Under the pieces are notes generated by a model. That model was not told the DNA's origin. It ran no database searches and worked only from the letters and a program-made list of their open reading frames with translations. From the NCBI GenBank assembly GCA_049320885.1, contig JBMORA010000045.1:18511-82510 (forward strand): 64,000 nt of DNA, written 5' to 3'. Each line of letters begins with the position of its first letter. Within the stretch, counting starts at the first letter, position 1. Position numbers and translations under genes: made by a program. The DNA comes from Thermodesulfobacteriota bacterium (GTDB taxonomy: Bacteria; Desulfobacterota; Desulfobacteria; Desulfobacterales; SURF-7). Shown here piece by piece: positions 21,837 through 27,985 of this stretch.

Positions 21837-22244
21837 ATACCACACGGTATCGATTTAATACACCTGTTTTACACGGGAAGGTGCCTCCTCTATCAAAAAT
21901 CCAGGCCGGAGAACGCTCCGGGACACTGCGCGATGTATGTTTTTCGACCCATCACCTGCCGTCTTTTCGGTTTTTCCGTGACCCGGGATCGAATGGGCCG
22001 GGACAACCTTGCCGCCTGCCGAATCATCCGCCGGACCAGCTCCGCTCTTTTCGAAGCCGCCCGTTCATTTCAATCCGAAGCCCCTTGCTTGTCGGACATG
22101 GGGCTCCGCCTGTACTCCCTGGATCCGAATTCCGGTGACCGGTTGCTGCCCATCAACGAAGCCCTGGAGGCCGCCATCCGCCGCATGGGGCTGTACCTGC
22201 AGATATCCCATGGACGATTGCTGAGCGACCATACCGCAGCGTAC
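21837..22244 (+). pseudogene. 5'-truncated YkgJ-family Cys-cluster gene remnant, in frame with the downstream ParA gene
   Basis: After TAA at 21834-21836 the frame reads GRCLLYQ...GHCAMYVFRPITCRLFG (C-terminal YkgJ motif) with no N-terminal CxxxCxxCC and no RBS. The end boundary is inferred. Confidence 0.6.
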
Positions 22245-22308
22245 GGAGGCAAAAACGGAATTCAAGATAAGAAACGAGGTCGATACAACATATGGTATAT
22301 CTTTACTA

Positions 22309-22337
22309 TTGACACACAATGGAGACCATATTACGGT
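22309..22337 (+). promoter_or_regulatory. Putative sigma70 promoter for the ParA-CBM48 gene
   Basis: TTGACA-17 nt-TACGGT, about 105 bp upstream of the ATG at 22443. Confidence 0.45.
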
Positions 22338-22442
22338 ATCCCATCGGGTGATGTATTCAACAGCCGCGGCATCATCATCGGCCATTCCCCGGGCCGATGC
22401 AGACCGGTTTCAGCCGGAAGGACTCCACCAACCGGAGGCGCC

Positions 22443-23504
22443 ATGCGAATCATAGCGATATCGAATCAAAAAGGCGGATGCGGGAAAACCACCACGGCGG
22501 TGAATCTGTCGGCCTGTCTGGCCCGGAAGGGGAAAAGCGTGCTGTTGATCGATATGGATCCCCAGGCCCATTCCTCCATCGCCCTGAACCTGGATGTAAA
22601 GCAACTTGAAACATCCGTCCGCGATGCCCTGGGGGGACCCGAAACCGGCCGGACCCGGATGGACGAAATCGTCGTTGCCGTCAGCGAGCATCTCCATATC
22701 GCTCCGGCCGATATCACCCTGAGCGCCCTGGAACAACAGCTGGCCATGGTGCCGGGACGGGAAAACCGGCTCAAGGAAGCCATCGCCGGCATGGATCGGG
22801 AATATGAATATGTCATCGTGGATTGCCCGCCCAGCCTGGGCCTGTTGACCTTCAACGCCCTGATCGCCGCCACGGAAATCATCGTGCCCCTGGAAATGAG
22901 CTTGTTTTCCCTGCATGGCGTCAGCCGGTTGCTGGAAATCATCGGACTGGTCCGGGAAAAGACCGGTCATGAGCCGCGGATCCGGATCCTGGCCACCATG
23001 GTTGACGATAGAACCAGAATATCGCGGGAAGTCCTGGCGGATATCGGAAGCCATTTTAAGGAGGCCCTCTTCGCCACCCGCATTCATTTTACCGTCAAAT
23101 TGAAGGAAGCCGCCAGTTTCGGCAAATCCATCGTCGATTACGGCAGGGACAGCCGGGGCCGGAGAGACTACCTGGCCCTGACGGAAGAAGTGATCGCACA
23201 AGATAGCCGGCCGGCATCCTCCCGGTTACGGGAAAAAAGCACCATCATTACCAGACAGTTCACGTTGGATGCCCCCCGGGCGGCCTCGGTGAAAATCGTC
23301 GGCACGTTCAACGACTGGACTCCTTCCGAGAAGTCCGCCATGGAACAACGGTCTGACGGCGTCTGGACAAAAGAACTCTCATTGACGCCGGGCGATTATC
23401 AATACCGGTTTCTGGTGGACGATGTCTGGACGGAAGACCACGCCAATCCCCATGCCGTGGACAACGCCTTCGGGGGAAAAAATTCCTGTATCACCATCCG
23501 CTGA
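22443..23504 (+). CDS. Soj/ParA-family ATPase fused to a C-terminal AMPK-type glycogen-binding (CBM48) domain
   Basis: GGAGG RBS before MRIIAISNQKGGCGKTT (deviant Walker A), IDMDPQAH, VDCPPSLG. The C-terminus has VKIVGTFNDW...GVW...LTPGDYQYRFLVDDVWTED...NAFGGKNS. Confidence 0.9.
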   Translation: MRIIAISNQKGGCGKTTTAVNLSACLARKGKSVLLIDMDPQAHSSIALNLDVKQLETSVRDALGGPETGRTRMDEIVVAVSEHLHIAPADITLSALEQQLAMVPGRENRLKEAIAGMDREYEYVIVDCPPSLGLLTFNALIAATEIIVPLEMSLFSLHGVSRLLEIIGLVREKTGHEPRIRILATMVDDRTRISREVLADIGSHFKEALFATRIHFTVKLKEAASFGKSIVDYGRDSRGRRDYLALTEEVIAQDSRPASSRLREKSTIITRQFTLDAPRAASVKIVGTFNDWTPSEKSAMEQRSDGVWTKELSLTPGDYQYRFLVDDVWTEDHANPHAVDNAFGGKNSCITIR

Positions 23505-23515
23505 AAAGGAAGGCC

Positions 23516-23944
23516 ATGGAAAACAAACGCCTCGGCAGAGGGCTGGAACAGATTTCCGACCTGTTTTTATCCACCGGGAAAGAACGGCCATCCGCTCTTG
23601 ATGGTGCCATGTTCGCGGATCCCGTCGATGAATCCGGGTCCGCCCCTCCGCCGGACGGGGAGAAGGAATCCGCGCCCCCTGATCCCCATGGTGACGGACT
23701 GGCGGCCGATCTGTGCGAGGTGGAGGAACAGGTGAGTGTCCGGAAGAACATCACCTTCCCGCTCCTGCCCGACGCCCGGGAAAAGATGTGGCGGTTGGTT
23801 TGCCGGTATCTGGAATCCGGTTACGGTATCAAGCGGATCGAGTTGATCAAAAGCAGCAGAAACGGCAAGCCCGGCCATCAAAAGACCACGGAAGAGATCG
23901 TCTGTATCGGCACCGAAGACCCGCCGCCCGTCATGAATTTTTAG
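23516..23944 (+). CDS. Hypothetical ParA partner with ParB-type N-terminal KRLGRGL peptide
   Basis: Starts 11 bp after the ParA-CBM stop, AAGGAAGG RBS, MENKRLGRGLEQISDLFLS, then an acidic Pro-rich linker and a small C-terminal domain. Confidence 0.8.
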   Translation: MENKRLGRGLEQISDLFLSTGKERPSALDGAMFADPVDESGSAPPPDGEKESAPPDPHGDGLAADLCEVEEQVSVRKNITFPLLPDAREKMWRLVCRYLESGYGIKRIELIKSSRNGKPGHQKTTEEIVCIGTEDPPPVMNF

Positions 23945-25196
23945 AACCGGCCGCAAGGGTCAGCCGCGTCATTTCATCCCCCCAGGCCAGCGCATCCCGG
24001 AAAGCCTTTCTGACCTTCCCACCGTCGAGTCCCAGATTTTGAATGGCTTTTTCCGCCGCGTCCCACTGGCCTTCCTCGATGATTTCCGACAGTCGCAGGA
24101 GCGGAGCGTATTCATTGTTCGCATCCCGGCACAGGGCGGATTTCAGTTTGTCCTCCAGGGGCAGGTATTGGACGATTTCCGGCATGGGACGGTTGATCAT
24201 GGCGTCCAGCAGGGAGAACATTCCCAGCAGAAACAGGCTTTCCGGATTGAAGCCCCAGAAATCGTGGTCTCTTGCGATCTGTTCCAGGAATTTGCCCCGC
24301 TGGGCTGACAGCACCACCAATTCCGAGCCTTTCTGGCTCTGGGCCATGTCGTTCAGCACCACGACCCGGACCCAGTTCCGCATTTTTTTCCAGCCCAGCA
24401 TGTTGATGGCGTCCCGGATGGACTGGATCTTCTGACGAAAGCCATAGGCAGCGGAATTGATATAGGACAGCAACCGGAAACTGATGGAAACATCCGTGCG
24501 GATGGCCTCGCTCAGTCGTTCCAGATCAGGGTCTTCCTGTTCGATCAGACGCATCAACTGCAGGCGGCTCACCTGATTGGACGATAGTTTTTTCACGCTG
24601 ATCTGTTCCGGCTGCTTGAAATATCCGCCCTGAAACAACTGAAAACCCACATCCTTGCAGACCGTCATCAGGGGCTGGCTCTGGACCTGTCCGGCCAGGG
24701 ACAGACAACCGAAGGGCTCGATCTTTTTCTGGAATCCGTTCAATTCATCCCGGTTTTGTCCGGCGACTTCCACATGGACGATGTCCGCGATTTTCAACAG
24801 GGATTCAGGCGTGGCTCCACCCGCCGCCTCCACCACCAGCATATATCCGTCGGCTTTCAATTGGGCGAGGGTGTCCTCGAATCCCGGTTCGCCGGCGGGG
24901 CGGCCGAGAATTTTCACCGCCGTCCGCTTCGGTGGCAGCGCATACGGCAGTTTGTCCAATACATTTTTGGCCGAGAACCGGACCATGATTTTCCGTCCGT
25001 GGTCCAGCATCTGCTGCAGGCCCATGTAAGTGCCGGAAGCCAGGGTGCCGGCCACCGTGTCCGTATCGAACTCGACGGCCGCGAGCTGTCCGGCTCCGGA
25101 AACCGCGAAGAGTTCATATCCCCACAGATGCTGTTCGGCGTCGAAAATCGGCTGTCGCGCCAGGGATAATGCTGCGACCTCTTTCCCAGTTGTCAT
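23931..25196 (-). CDS. Degenerate EAL plus HDOD domain protein (YuxH-like)
   Basis: LARQPIFD, GYELF, FQGGYF; HDOD motifs DVSISFRLLSYINSA and LFLLGMFSLLDA. Confidence 0.88.
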   Translation of the reverse strand: MTTGKEVAALSLARQPIFDAEQHLWGYELFAVSGAGQLAAVEFDTDTVAGTLASGTYMGLQQMLDHGRKIMVRFSAKNVLDKLPYALPPKRTAVKILGRPAGEPGFEDTLAQLKADGYMLVVEAAGGATPESLLKIADIVHVEVAGQNRDELNGFQKKIEPFGCLSLAGQVQSQPLMTVCKDVGFQLFQGGYFKQPEQISVKKLSSNQVSRLQLMRLIEQEDPDLERLSEAIRTDVSISFRLLSYINSAAYGFRQKIQSIRDAINMLGWKKMRNWVRVVVLNDMAQSQKGSELVVLSAQRGKFLEQIARDHDFWGFNPESLFLLGMFSLLDAMINRPMPEIVQYLPLEDKLKSALCRDANNEYAPLLRLSEIIEEGQWDAAEKAIQNLGLDGGKVRKAFRDALAWGDEMTRLTLAAGSKNS

Positions 25197-25246: not shown

Positions 25247-27745
25247 TTACAGCGGCAGGGGTTTCATCCCCCAGATATTTCTGGCGTACTCCATCACCGC
25301 CCGGTCACTGGAGAATTTCCCCATGTTGGCGGTGTTCAGGATGGACCGTCGCGCCCAGTCCTCCTGGTTCTGATAGGCCAGGCTGACCTGTTCCTGGGCC
25401 TCGATGTAGGAACGGTAATCCGCCAGCACCATGTAATAGTCCCCGTGATCCATCAACGACTGGATGATCGGTGAAAACAGCCAGGGTTCGGCGGGGGAGA
25501 AATACCCGTTGTTGATCATTTCCAGCACCTTTCTCAGTTCCGCATCCTGGCGATAGATATCCCGCGGGTTGTATCCGCCGCCGCGCATCTGGTCCACTTC
25601 ATGGGATTTCATCCCGAAAATGAAGATATTGTCCGGCCCCACCTCCTCGAGAATTTCGACATTGGCCCCATCCATGGTGCCGATGGTCAAGGCGCCGTTG
25701 AGGGCGAATTTCATGTTGCCCGTGCCCGACGCTTCCATGCCGGCGGTGGAAATCTGCTCTGACAGCTCCGCGGCCGGAATAATCTTTTCCGCCTGGGAAA
25801 TGCAATAGTTCGGCAGGAAAATAACCTTCAGTTTGCCACGCACTTCCGGATCACCGTTGATTTTTTCGGCAATGGAATTGATCAGTTTGATGATCAGCTT
25901 GGCGCGATAATAAGCGGGCGCCGCCTTGCCTGCGAAAATCACCGTGCGGGGGGCAATGGGGGCCGTCGAACCCTCGATGATCCGGCAGTAGAGAGTGATC
26001 ACATGCAGGGCGTTCAGGAGCTGCCGCTTGTATTCGTGGATCCGTTTGACATGCACATCGAACAGGGTATCCGGATTGACCCCCATCCCGGTTTTACGCA
26101 AAATATAGCGCGCCAGGCGTTTCTTGTTGTTGCGCTTCACCGCCAGCCAGGCGGAGCGGAACGCGGCGTCCCCGGCATACGGGATCAGCCGCTTCAACTG
26201 ATCCAGCTCCGTGACCCATCCCGGGCCGATGGTCCCGGTGATCAGTTCCGACAGTTCCGGATTGGCCTGACGGAGCCAGCGCCGGGGGGTGATGCCGTTG
26301 GTGACGTTTTTCAGCTTGCCGGGAAACACCCGGTCGAATCCGCTGAACATGCCCTCTTTCAAGATGCGGCTGTGCAGCTCCGCCACCCCGTTCACCGAGT
26401 GGCTGCCGATGATGGCCAGATAGGCCATGCGCACTTTCTTGACATCGCCCTCCTGAATGATGGACAGCCGGGACAGCAACTCGGGCTGATCCGGGTACCG
26501 CTGTTTGATGTCCTCCAGGAACCGGTGGTTGATCTCGTAGATGATTTCCAGATGCCGGGGCAACAGACGGCCGATCAGGGACACCGGCCAGGTCTCCAGG
26601 GCCTCGGGCATGACCGTATGATTCGTGTAGGCAAAGGTTCTGGTGCAGATCCCCCAGGCATCCTCCCATTCCAGCCCCTCCTCGTCGATGAGCAGGCGCA
26701 TGCATTCCGGAATCGCGATGGCCGGGTGGGTGTCGTTCAGCTGGATGGCCACGTAATCCGGAAAATACACGAAGGACTGTTGCTGTTTCCGGTATCTCCG
26801 AAAAATGTCCTGCATGGTGGCGGAAACGAAAAAATATTGCTGCCGCAGCCTCAGGGTCCGGCCCTGCTCCTGCTCGTCACTGGGATACAGCACCTTGGAA
26901 ATGGTCTCGCTCAGCACCTTGTTTTCCACGGCGCCGATATAGTTGCCCTGGTTGAAATAATCCAGGTTGAATTCCCGGCTCGATTTGGCGGTCCAGAGCC
27001 GCATGTTGGTGACAAAATCGTCGCCGTACCCGGGAATCAGGATGTCACAGGGCATGGCCATGACCCCTTCCGTATCCACCCAGCGGCAGCGCCTCCTGCC
27101 TTCCACATCGGTGTATATCTCCGAACGGCCGTAAAAACGCACGGTATACAGCTGTTCGCGCCGCTTGATTTCCCAGGGATTGCCGCGCCTCATCCAGTTG
27201 TCGCTCTGTTCCTGCTGGTAGCCGTTCACCAGTACCTGATGGAAGATGCCGTAATCGTAACGGATGCCGTAGCCGTAGCCCGGCAGACGCAAGCGCGCCA
27301 TGGAATCCATATAGCAGGAGGCCAGCCGTCCCAATCCGCCGTTGCCCAACCCGGAATCCCACTCTTCCTCCTCGATGTCGTCCAGGTCGAATCCGATGTC
27401 GCGGGTCGTATCCGCGGCCGCCTTTTCCATGCCGAGACTGATCAGGTAGTTCTTGAGAAAACGCCCGGGAAGAAATTCCAGGGAGAGATAATAGACCCGT
27501 TTGGCGAGGCTGTCATAACAGGCCCGCTGGGTCTTGATCCATTTCTGAATCAGGCGTTCCCGCAGGCTGAAAGCCAGGCCGGTGAAACAGCTGTATCGGT
27601 TGGGCATATCCGGATCGCCGCCGAGGGTGGACAAAATATGACGCCGGATGTCCTCATTCAGATGCCGGATGTCTTCTTTCGGTCCGCCTGGCTCCGTCTT
27701 CCCGCCCGGCTCCATGGGGTTATCGGATGGTGAACGCTTGGGCAT
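25247..27745 (-). CDS. glgP: Glycogen/alpha-glucan phosphorylase
   Basis: LGNGGLGRLASC, QLNDTHP, KRIHEYKRQLLN, EASGTGNMKF (PLP Lys). GGAGG RBS before MPKRS at 27745. Confidence 0.96.
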   Translation of the reverse strand: MPKRSPSDNPMEPGGKTEPGGPKEDIRHLNEDIRRHILSTLGGDPDMPNRYSCFTGLAFSLRERLIQKWIKTQRACYDSLAKRVYYLSLEFLPGRFLKNYLISLGMEKAAADTTRDIGFDLDDIEEEEWDSGLGNGGLGRLASCYMDSMARLRLPGYGYGIRYDYGIFHQVLVNGYQQEQSDNWMRRGNPWEIKRREQLYTVRFYGRSEIYTDVEGRRRCRWVDTEGVMAMPCDILIPGYGDDFVTNMRLWTAKSSREFNLDYFNQGNYIGAVENKVLSETISKVLYPSDEQEQGRTLRLRQQYFFVSATMQDIFRRYRKQQQSFVYFPDYVAIQLNDTHPAIAIPECMRLLIDEEGLEWEDAWGICTRTFAYTNHTVMPEALETWPVSLIGRLLPRHLEIIYEINHRFLEDIKQRYPDQPELLSRLSIIQEGDVKKVRMAYLAIIGSHSVNGVAELHSRILKEGMFSGFDRVFPGKLKNVTNGITPRRWLRQANPELSELITGTIGPGWVTELDQLKRLIPYAGDAAFRSAWLAVKRNNKKRLARYILRKTGMGVNPDTLFDVHVKRIHEYKRQLLNALHVITLYCRIIEGSTAPIAPRTVIFAGKAAPAYYRAKLIIKLINSIAEKINGDPEVRGKLKVIFLPNYCISQAEKIIPAAELSEQISTAGMEASGTGNMKFALNGALTIGTMDGANVEILEEVGPDNIFIFGMKSHEVDQMRGGGYNPRDIYRQDAELRKVLEMINNGYFSPAEPWLFSPIIQSLMDHGDYYMVLADYRSYIEAQEQVSLAYQNQEDWARRSILNTANMGKFSSDRAVMEYARNIWGMKPLPL

Positions 27746-27985
27746 GAATTGTCCTCCGGTGAAACGCAAGGGTCGGTTAGGGGTTTTCCGATACGGGGGA
27801 GTCAAAACCGTCGGGCCATCAGGGGCTTTCCGGCAGTACGGCGCATCGGATATGGCGGCTTGAAGCCACCGGCGCCCGATCCGCGCCGCCGGCTTCAATT
27901 GTTGGTGTTGTATAATACTATATAGGGTATACGAATTCCACCGTTTGATCAAGAGGAAGATCAACAGAGGAAGAACAGCCGGCCT

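Follow-up and report, generated by a model that had tools for sequence, protein, structure and literature searches.

The 64,000-nucleotide stretch of Thermodesulfobacteriota DNA analyzed here (contig JBMORA010000045.1 of assembly GCA_049320885.1, positions 18,511 to 82,510 of the forward strand; hereafter the window) encodes at 23516..23944 (+) a protein of 142 amino acids (aa) that begins with MENKRLGRGLEQISDLFLS and directly follows the gene of a Soj-like ATPase with a CBM48 module (ParA-CBM48, 353 aa, 22443..23504, +). We propose that this small protein is probably the dedicated partner of the adjacent ParA-CBM48, i.e. an ATPase-activating adaptor that stands in for ParB. Its binding to the ATPase and the stimulation of ATP hydrolysis would, by analogy with ParB, depend on the N-terminal peptide of residues 1-19 (23516..23572, +), a putative ParA-docking or activating motif recognized by its conservation and by a helix in the AlphaFold2 model. 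A first-pass annotation of the same DNA had suggested a dedicated activator or adaptor; the dedicated partnership is now supported by the linkage of the genes and by a conserved, portable peptide, whereas activation is a property that we infer. The portability of the peptide is the strongest of our results.

The same peptide is found on a second, unrelated family of proteins encoded at the same position. In one genome (G387) the protein encoded directly after ParA-CBM48 has 316 aa (L008:1489-2436), starts with MKRVKRLGRGLEDFSHLFLSS and continues as a ParA-like domain without Walker A. At 10 further ParA-CBM48 loci of the phylum (L072-L081), the downstream protein starts with the same core in seven cases (e.g. 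RPKLGRGLSDVSRFFLS, KKQGRGLAKVSHLFLS and ASRGIEEVSRYFLT, with a core such as KLGRGLxDVSxFFL); six of these seven proteins have 277-312 aa and the seventh (L073) is cut by the end of the locus. Two other downstream proteins, of 323 and 470 aa, carry the second half of the motif only (QLAEIAHLYF). All 22 database homologues of one large partner (38-96% identity) start with RPKLGRGLxDVS and lack Walker A as well. Members of this family of about 280 aa (L008:1489-2436, L077:2574-3422, L080:650-1498(-), P0078-P0099) are encoded directly after ParA-CBM48 genes. Comparing the profiles of the small and the large family with hhalign, only 25 N-terminal columns align (Prob 93%, E 3.4e-7), and the body of the large partner aligns to ParA instead (Prob 95%, E 2.6e-8, 130 columns) and has weak Pfam matches to CbiA/ParA. 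The large partner probably corresponds to the 'second inactive ParA' described in the ParA-CBM section of a preprint (bioRxiv 10.64898/2026.10.19.760177). As one peptide thus occurs on two unrelated scaffolds at the same position after the same ParA clade, it is a portable module tied to that clade, a pattern that, judged from the sequences, would be expected of a ParA-docking module.

Within the family of the small partner the peptide is widely conserved. An exhaustive search of 1.84 billion representative proteins gave 56 matches at E<=1e-3 (8 at <=1e-10), most of them found via the C-terminal domain, and a word-index search gave three relatives with 57, 49 and 38% identity. We counted the motif on 58 sequences, i.e. 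the query, the 56 matches of the exhaustive search and P0004 from the word-index search. The peptide is present in 48 of the 58 representatives, in 33 of them as the strict motif [LIVMF]G[RK]G[LIFM]xx[IVLF][STA]xx[FYSC][LIMF][ST] at the N-terminus and in 15 in a relaxed form (e.g. GRELxxVSxLFISS). Two representatives retain only the tail of the peptide, and the eight that have none are seemingly 5'-truncated or mis-started. The central motif residue is an arginine in 43 of the 48 peptide-bearing representatives. In the three closest relatives residues 1-10 (MENKRLGRGL) are invariant, the linker is variable and the C-terminal domain is conserved. The first-pass annotation had made its proposal dependent on the conservation of LGRGL among homologues, and the element is indeed kept throughout most of the family and unchanged in close relatives. 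LGRGL by itself is not rare, with 20 occurrences in the 58,099 six-frame open reading frames (ORFs) of at least 50 aa of this genome; our case is therefore built on conservation and position, not on occurrence.

The position next to ParA is equally constant. We collected 55 related loci, three from genome contigs and 52 from metagenomes (22-sequence sub-alignment of the 58), and scored every ORF in them by phmmer with the ATPase and the CBM portions of the window ParA. The pattern used for the metagenome scan contained LGRGL, so that the motif is present in those 52 loci by construction and provides no evidence of conservation there; the count of ParA linkage is independent of this pattern. 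Of the loci, 39 have more than 1.1 kb of upstream DNA; in every one of these a ParA of this clade, on the same strand, immediately precedes the partner gene (with the CBM in 38), which bears out the linkage to ParA genes that had been predicted for the homologues. Of the other 16 loci, whose upstream flank is short, 11 still show part of a ParA or CBM, and the median gap between ParA and partner is 9 bp. In the window, the ParA-CBM48 stop codon (23502-23504) is separated from the partner start by 11 bp, and this intergenic gap contains a Shine-Dalgarno-like run, AAGGAAGG (23506..23513, +), read from the sequence. The 144 neighbors from 32 loci are mostly housekeeping genes (ATP synthase, TetR-RND efflux, ABC transporters, PolA, ClpB, mraZ cluster). 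Since the wider neighborhood is not conserved, the pair itself is the conserved unit.

The upstream ORF matches AAA_31 (1e-52), CbiA (1.5e-19), AMPK1_CBM (3.4e-12) and CBM_48 (3e-5) in Pfam, identifying ParA-CBM48 as a Soj-like deviant-Walker-A ATPase with a C-terminal glycogen-binding CBM48/AMPK1_CBM module (23280..23498, +; residues 450-522 of the long ORF). With the Soj of this genome itself, which adjoins a true ParB on another contig, it shares 40% identity. Among 34 aligned sequences, the signature lysine and Walker A (KGGCGKTT), the DxD motif and Walker B (DCPPSLGLL) are invariant or nearly so, and the CBM residues W292, W308, Y321, W329 and N347 are nearly invariant. Upstream of its likely start the ParA-CBM48 frame runs on without a stop for 170 codons (21933-22442, +), so that automatic gene callers may report a protein of 523 aa whose N-terminal extension is spurious. 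The true start is probably the ATG at 22443 and not the beginning of the long ORF at 21933, because the N-termini of the homologues align at MRIIxIxNQKGG(CGKTT) and a GGAGG stands 6 nt before this ATG.

Besides the ParA that carries the CBM, a sister clade of about 330 aa (L066:1501-2496, L068:214-1212, L061:3965-4942, L006:2090-3103(-)) has no CBM; in its place stands a C-terminal tail that is acidic and conserved, ...S(E/D)MVEA(I/M)A.... This sister ParA replaces the CBM-bearing one at L061 and L013 (metagenome) and at L006/L011 (genome G034); it is paired with the same small partner in some genomes and stands alone in others. Proteins consisting of a CBM48 only, 119-123 aa long, also adjoin the system (L072:2608-2964, by Pfam; L051:739-1107, by phmmer to the window CBM).

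The sequence LGRGL at the extreme N-terminus of Spo0J/ParB binds and stimulates Soj/ParA. The partner carries KRLGRGLEQI at residues 4-13, by pattern a motif of the ParA-binding type. This genome's ParB, which PF02195 detects at 8e-34, reads KKVALGRGLDALFP / ...KKVALGRGLDALFPD, and 27 other ParBs of the phylum follow [KR][KR]xALG[KR]GLxAL[IL]P. Common to partner and ParB are two basic residues, LG[RK]GL and an aliphatic residue at +7 ([KR][KR]xLG[RK]GLxx[IL]), i.e. hydrophobic positions i, i+4 and i+7 with a basic residue between them. When the family profile is compared with the 28 ParBs by hhalign, the motif is the sole alignment (EKKsLGRGLEDI vs krkaLGkGLxAL), nothing past its 12 columns is aligned, and the large partner likewise aligns to ParB with the motif alone. 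The likeness would thus be a functional resemblance of a short linear motif (core of 8-12 residues); a claim of demonstrable homology to ParB was dropped, the profile similarity being not significant.

What such a motif may do can be read from work on ParB. In the portion of that work drawn on here (PMC12462528), the N-terminal motif of ParB, made up of residues that are aliphatic or positively charged, is required to bind ParA and suffices for it; it fits into a hydrophobic cleft containing L150-G151-L152 of Myxococcus xanthus ParA, a loop connected to Walker B, and its central Arg/Lys contacts the other ParA subunit. According to the same text, dimeric ParB is a much stronger activator of ParA than single peptides are. 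Immediately behind Walker B the ParA-CBM48 clade retains S-L-G-L-L, and this loop may be equated with L150-L152 of the M. xanthus protein, going by the description in the paper rather than by an alignment. The divergent second half of the motif (xDISxxFLS vs xALIP) could insulate the pair from the chromosomal ParAB.

Behind the peptide, the partner consists of a linker and a C-terminal domain. The linker (residues 20-65; 23573..23710, +) is acidic, proline-rich and unconserved: its 46 residues comprise 8 Pro, 11 Asp+Glu and 3 Lys+Arg, and in the AlphaFold2 model (58-row alignment, mean predicted local distance difference test score, pLDDT, of 78) its mean pLDDT per 10-residue block is 52-65. 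The C-terminal domain (residues 66-142, CEVEE...; 23711..23941, +) is conserved; residues ~68-135 are modelled at pLDDT > 90 with a helix at 87-100 and a hairpin with strands 107-118/121-132. A further short helix, amphipathic, is modelled at residues 9-17. Searching Pfam and NCBIfam with the partner gave nothing at E<=1, and therefore no ParB/Srx domain and no helix-turn-helix; a CTP-binding motif of the GERR type (GxxR) was not found in its sequence, and a Pfam scan of all 58 family members returned no convincing family match, helix-turn-helix families included. PDB sequences compared with the family profile gave nothing significant (best E 0.2, a ribosomal protein). Structure searches with the C-terminal domain were similarly empty, as Foldseek against the PDB returned nothing at E<=1e-3, VIA-align against 48,161 chains reached a best Z of 2.1, and the ESM Atlas gave only structural neighbors under the bar (DUF4177, Alba-like; TM 0.33-0.42 by query) with no feature match. 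A possible reason for the missing fold match is that the domain is an obligate oligomer but was modelled as a monomer. All of this agrees with what the first-pass annotation had described from the letters, namely the ORF, its translation and its N-terminal peptide, an acidic Pro-rich and probably disordered linker, an unrecognized C-terminal alpha/beta part, and neither a ParB core nor a helix-turn-helix.

The lengths of the family members fall into two groups, of about 107-125 aa and 175-204 aa. In the longer ones (P0007, P0012, P0014, P0025, P0035 etc.; L013:491-1042) a Cys-rich insert with the pattern ...RExxCxxCxN...KC[RK]IF...C.YF replaces the acidic linker. This insert, which is absent from the window protein, may form a four-Cys metal site.

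From these elements a mechanism can be sketched. ParA-CBM48 would dimerize on ATP and probably bind the nucleoid like its relative Soj, with its CBM48 binding alpha-glucan (glycogen). The amphipathic peptide, with L6, L10 and I13 as hydrophobic residues and R8 as the central one, would slot into a hydrophobic groove at the ParA dimer's edge, formed by the loop after Walker B, and would trigger ATP hydrolysis and release, as the ParB peptide does. The flexible acidic linker would give reach. The C-terminal domain would most likely oligomerize, which is the simplest role for it and would allow two peptides to reach the two symmetric sites of the ParA dimer, and/or it would anchor the partner to cargo. 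The net effect would be that glycogen particles are tethered dynamically, in an ATP-driven manner, for distribution or inheritance or for a controlled access of glycogen enzymes. We infer all four of these steps, including binding, stimulation, oligomerization, nucleoid binding and cargo. A complex prediction with two ParA ATPase domains, ATP, Mg and partner residues 1-40, using alignments for each chain, gave ipSAE values of 0.36, 0.20 and 0.24 (mark 0.32; no controls) and counts neither for nor against binding.

Glycogen is suggested as cargo by the nearly invariant aromatic residues of the CBM48, by the CBM48-only genes beside L051 and L072, and by other neighboring genes. A glycogen phosphorylase gene (GlgP; 25247..27964, -; Pfam Phosphorylase, 1093 bits) lies 1.3 kb downstream of the partner in the window, and GlgP adjoins the system in L001 and L002 as well. 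In a more distant clade, a 291-320-aa protein with Glyco_transf_5 only is encoded right after the partner on the same strand (L003:6546-7418, L035:2146-3018, L039:5573-6532); the matches, with E about 1e-18 to 5e-19, cover only the N-terminal 'starch synthase catalytic domain'. This half-size gene looks like a relative of GlgA and is a second, independent link to alpha-glucan metabolism. A role at glycogen granules is therefore plausible. More tentatively, and as something we hold to be possible rather than probable, the pair could be a minimal ParABS-like machine for a polysaccharide, in which a Soj-derived ParA with CBM48 and a 'headless ParB' (activating peptide, linker and an oligomerization domain of new fold, driving the ATPase cycle) distribute or partition the glycogen granules of sulfate-reducing Desulfobacterota on the nucleoid.

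Several observations speak against the dedicated-partner proposal or its extension to glycogen. The similarity to ParB is weak by profile: the 12-column hhalign match has an E of 0.016 and a Prob of 2.8%; a hidden Markov model (HMM) of 27 ParB N-termini recovers this genome's own ParB at E 7e-6 and gives the window protein only 2.4 bits (best E among the small family 1.4); and in the reverse direction an HMM of the family N-terminus, run on the six-frame ORFs of the genome, places ParB 13th with E 25. The second half of the motif (EDISDIFLS) is unlike that of ParB (xALIP). Both genes are also sporadically distributed: of 401 genomes sampled from the phylum, 17, this one included, have full-length ParA-CBM48 fusions, and three match the small-partner profile, with one more match that covers the peptide alone. 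Linkage has its exceptions, too: in G338 the small gene is flanked by birA and hypF, with the sister ParA on another contig, and at L072 there is no peptide-bearing neighbor and a CBM48-only gene instead. The C-terminal domain also accompanies the CBM-less ParAs of G034, L013 and L061. As it occurs with CBM-bearing and CBM-less ParAs alike, and is replaced by a dead ParA in the large partner, it is not a CBM48-specific binder. In addition, the architecture is atypical in that the cargo-binding module is located on the ATPase and not on the partner, so that the classical ratchet with the activator on the cargo does not follow directly. Finally, glycogen genes are found near a minority of loci only, and the loci with GlgP are close kin and thus not independent cases.

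A different explanation for the pair is that it is a conflict or immune system, namely the 'ParA-CBM' type ConB5 (bioRxiv 10.64898/2026.10.19.760177). As set out in the preprint's section on ParA-CBM, the CBM would sense infection-related carbohydrate changes and multimerization of ParA would be the effector; the small protein would then serve as a regulating or sensing subunit. The core agrees, since the upstream gene is a ParA with a C-terminal AMPK1_CBM fusion, and the section describes the ConB5 fusions as sporadic and, in some variants, accompanied by a second inactive ParA, like the large partner found here. The sporadic distribution in the sampled phylum, the few loci beside defence-like genes (an HsdR fragment at L018; AAA_21 and DUF4276 at L011) and a clade-specific third gene in 30 of the 55 loci would fit as well. 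That section of the preprint, which interprets the fusions as immunity, names neither a partner of 110-200 aa nor the shared ParB-like peptide. The immune signatures of ConB5, i.e. a rapidly diverging CBM and a defence-island context, were not found in the clade studied here: its CBM is not fast-evolving, the aromatic residues being nearly invariant, and defence-like genes occur at only about three loci among the mostly housekeeping neighborhoods, while genes of glycogen metabolism adjoin several. Partner, large partner and third gene were all without a match in PADLOC, whose matches for ParA were weak and mainly in the P-loop region. Intact ATPase motifs together with a peptide of the ParB type moreover suggest a turnover cycle, not a one-shot effector. 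We thus consider an immune function unlikely and a weaker rival to a dedicated ParA partner, unsupported by the genomic contexts and by PADLOC here.

Keeping the dedicated partner as the preferred interpretation, its N-terminal amphipathic helix might still act in another way, by targeting a membrane or granule surface or by sequestering or inhibiting ParA, the likeness to LGRGL being a coincidence. This would accommodate the non-significant profile similarity to ParB, the modelled short amphipathic helix at residues 9-17 and the second half of the motif (ISDxFLS), which is without a ParB counterpart. However, it is precisely the part shared with ParB, i.e. the basic residues and LGRGL with its central Arg, that is most conserved in both partner families, and the peptide accompanies a Soj-like ParA clade on two scaffolds. 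No transmembrane or lipid-binding feature was seen in the partner, and a membrane-targeting helix as its main role was rejected for want of a supporting feature. Taken together, we regard such other roles of the helix as quite improbable. That the ORF is a chance open frame in GC-rich DNA and no gene at all has next to no probability and was rejected: although it is small, has no database name and has relatives that, where source names exist, are annotated as 'hypothetical protein' only, it is represented by 56 clusters in the exhaustive search, shows the typical protein pattern of conserved ends and a variable linker, has a Shine-Dalgarno-like run and a conserved operon position, and ends in a confidently folded domain.

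Among known systems, the partner resembles ParB of ParABS in that the motif stands at the extreme N-terminus, is followed by a flexible region, and the gene lies directly after that of a Soj-type ParA. It differs from ParB in having no ParB/Srx CTPase domain, no helix-turn-helix and no C-terminal ParB dimerization domain; no centromere-binding function is apparent in it, and the ParA bears a CBM48. ParG (TP228) and omega (pSM19035), according to the portion of PMC12462528 used above, are small as well and combine an unstructured N-terminal activating tail with a compact C-terminal oligomerizing domain. Their C-terminal domains are ribbon-helix-helix DNA binders, whereas the model of the partner shows a helix and a long hairpin with no ribbon-helix-helix, and no DNA-binding family is detectable in it by Foldseek, VIA or Pfam. 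With the carboxysome system McdA/McdB and with PomX/PomZ the pair shares a ParA-type ATPase, a small or partly disordered partner and, as proposed here, a non-DNA cargo; in the passages of the literature considered here (PMC12139897, PMC7993993, PMC13170346), the N-terminal region of McdB/PomX-type partners activates the ATPase. There is no sequence relation to these proteins, and their partner carries the cargo-binding function, which here would lie with the ATPase (CBM48).

MinE is comparable to the small partner in its short N-terminal ATPase-contacting helix and its small dimerizing alpha/beta domain, but the cognate ATPase here is Soj-like and not MinD-like. The site of MinE on MinD also differs from that of ParB on ParA, as stated in the part of PMC12462528 referred to before. 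The partner has no Pfam match to MinE, and MinE is not among its Foldseek/VIA matches (best Z overall only 2.1). With activating partners as a class it shares the co-inheritance next to ParA (39/39 loci) and a conserved N-terminal peptide with an Arg.

ParA/MinD ATPases position chromosomes, plasmids, carboxysomes, chemoreceptor arrays and division sites. The pair described here would be a further ParA/MinD ATPase with an activating partner; its small partner has neither a Pfam model nor a detectable known fold. In open-access papers and bioRxiv we found no ParA/MinD system for glycogen granules and no report of the small partner; the ParA-CBM fusion came up in a single paper, the October 2026 preprint on immunity (bioRxiv 10.64898/2026.10.19.760177), whose section on the fusion does not describe the partner. 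Should the proposed glycogen machine prove true, glycogen would be a new class of cargo for ParA/MinD ATPases, sister lineages would have an alternative activator in the dead-ParA scaffold with the same peptide, and for these clades the immune reading of ParA-CBM put forward in the preprint would have to be revised. The system further bears on the evolution of ParA activation peptides, on what keeps them insulated from the host ParB, and on whether bacteria actively organize glycogen. It constitutes a minimal system of two proteins, with a peptide of 20 residues and one Arg, and is open to direct testing.

Two neighboring genes deserve mention. Downstream of the partner and convergent to it lies an HDOD-domain gene (23931..25196, -; Pfam HDOD 3e-17) that shares 14 bp with the 3' end of the partner gene. 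The HDOD-GlgP arrangement is conserved in the close relatives L001 and L002, and outside these two the convergent HDOD gene is not conserved. In the encoded 421-aa protein the HDOD domain is confined to residues 212-327, and the N-terminal 200 aa have no family match. The third gene mentioned above encodes 226-245 aa and follows the partner on the same strand (L012:5665-6348, L017:1690-2382, L026:3916-4593, others). It was not found in this genome (best E 0.15) and has no Pfam or Foldseek match; its AlphaFold2 model is mostly helical (pLDDT 62). The copies of this clade-specific gene are 69-82% identical to each other.

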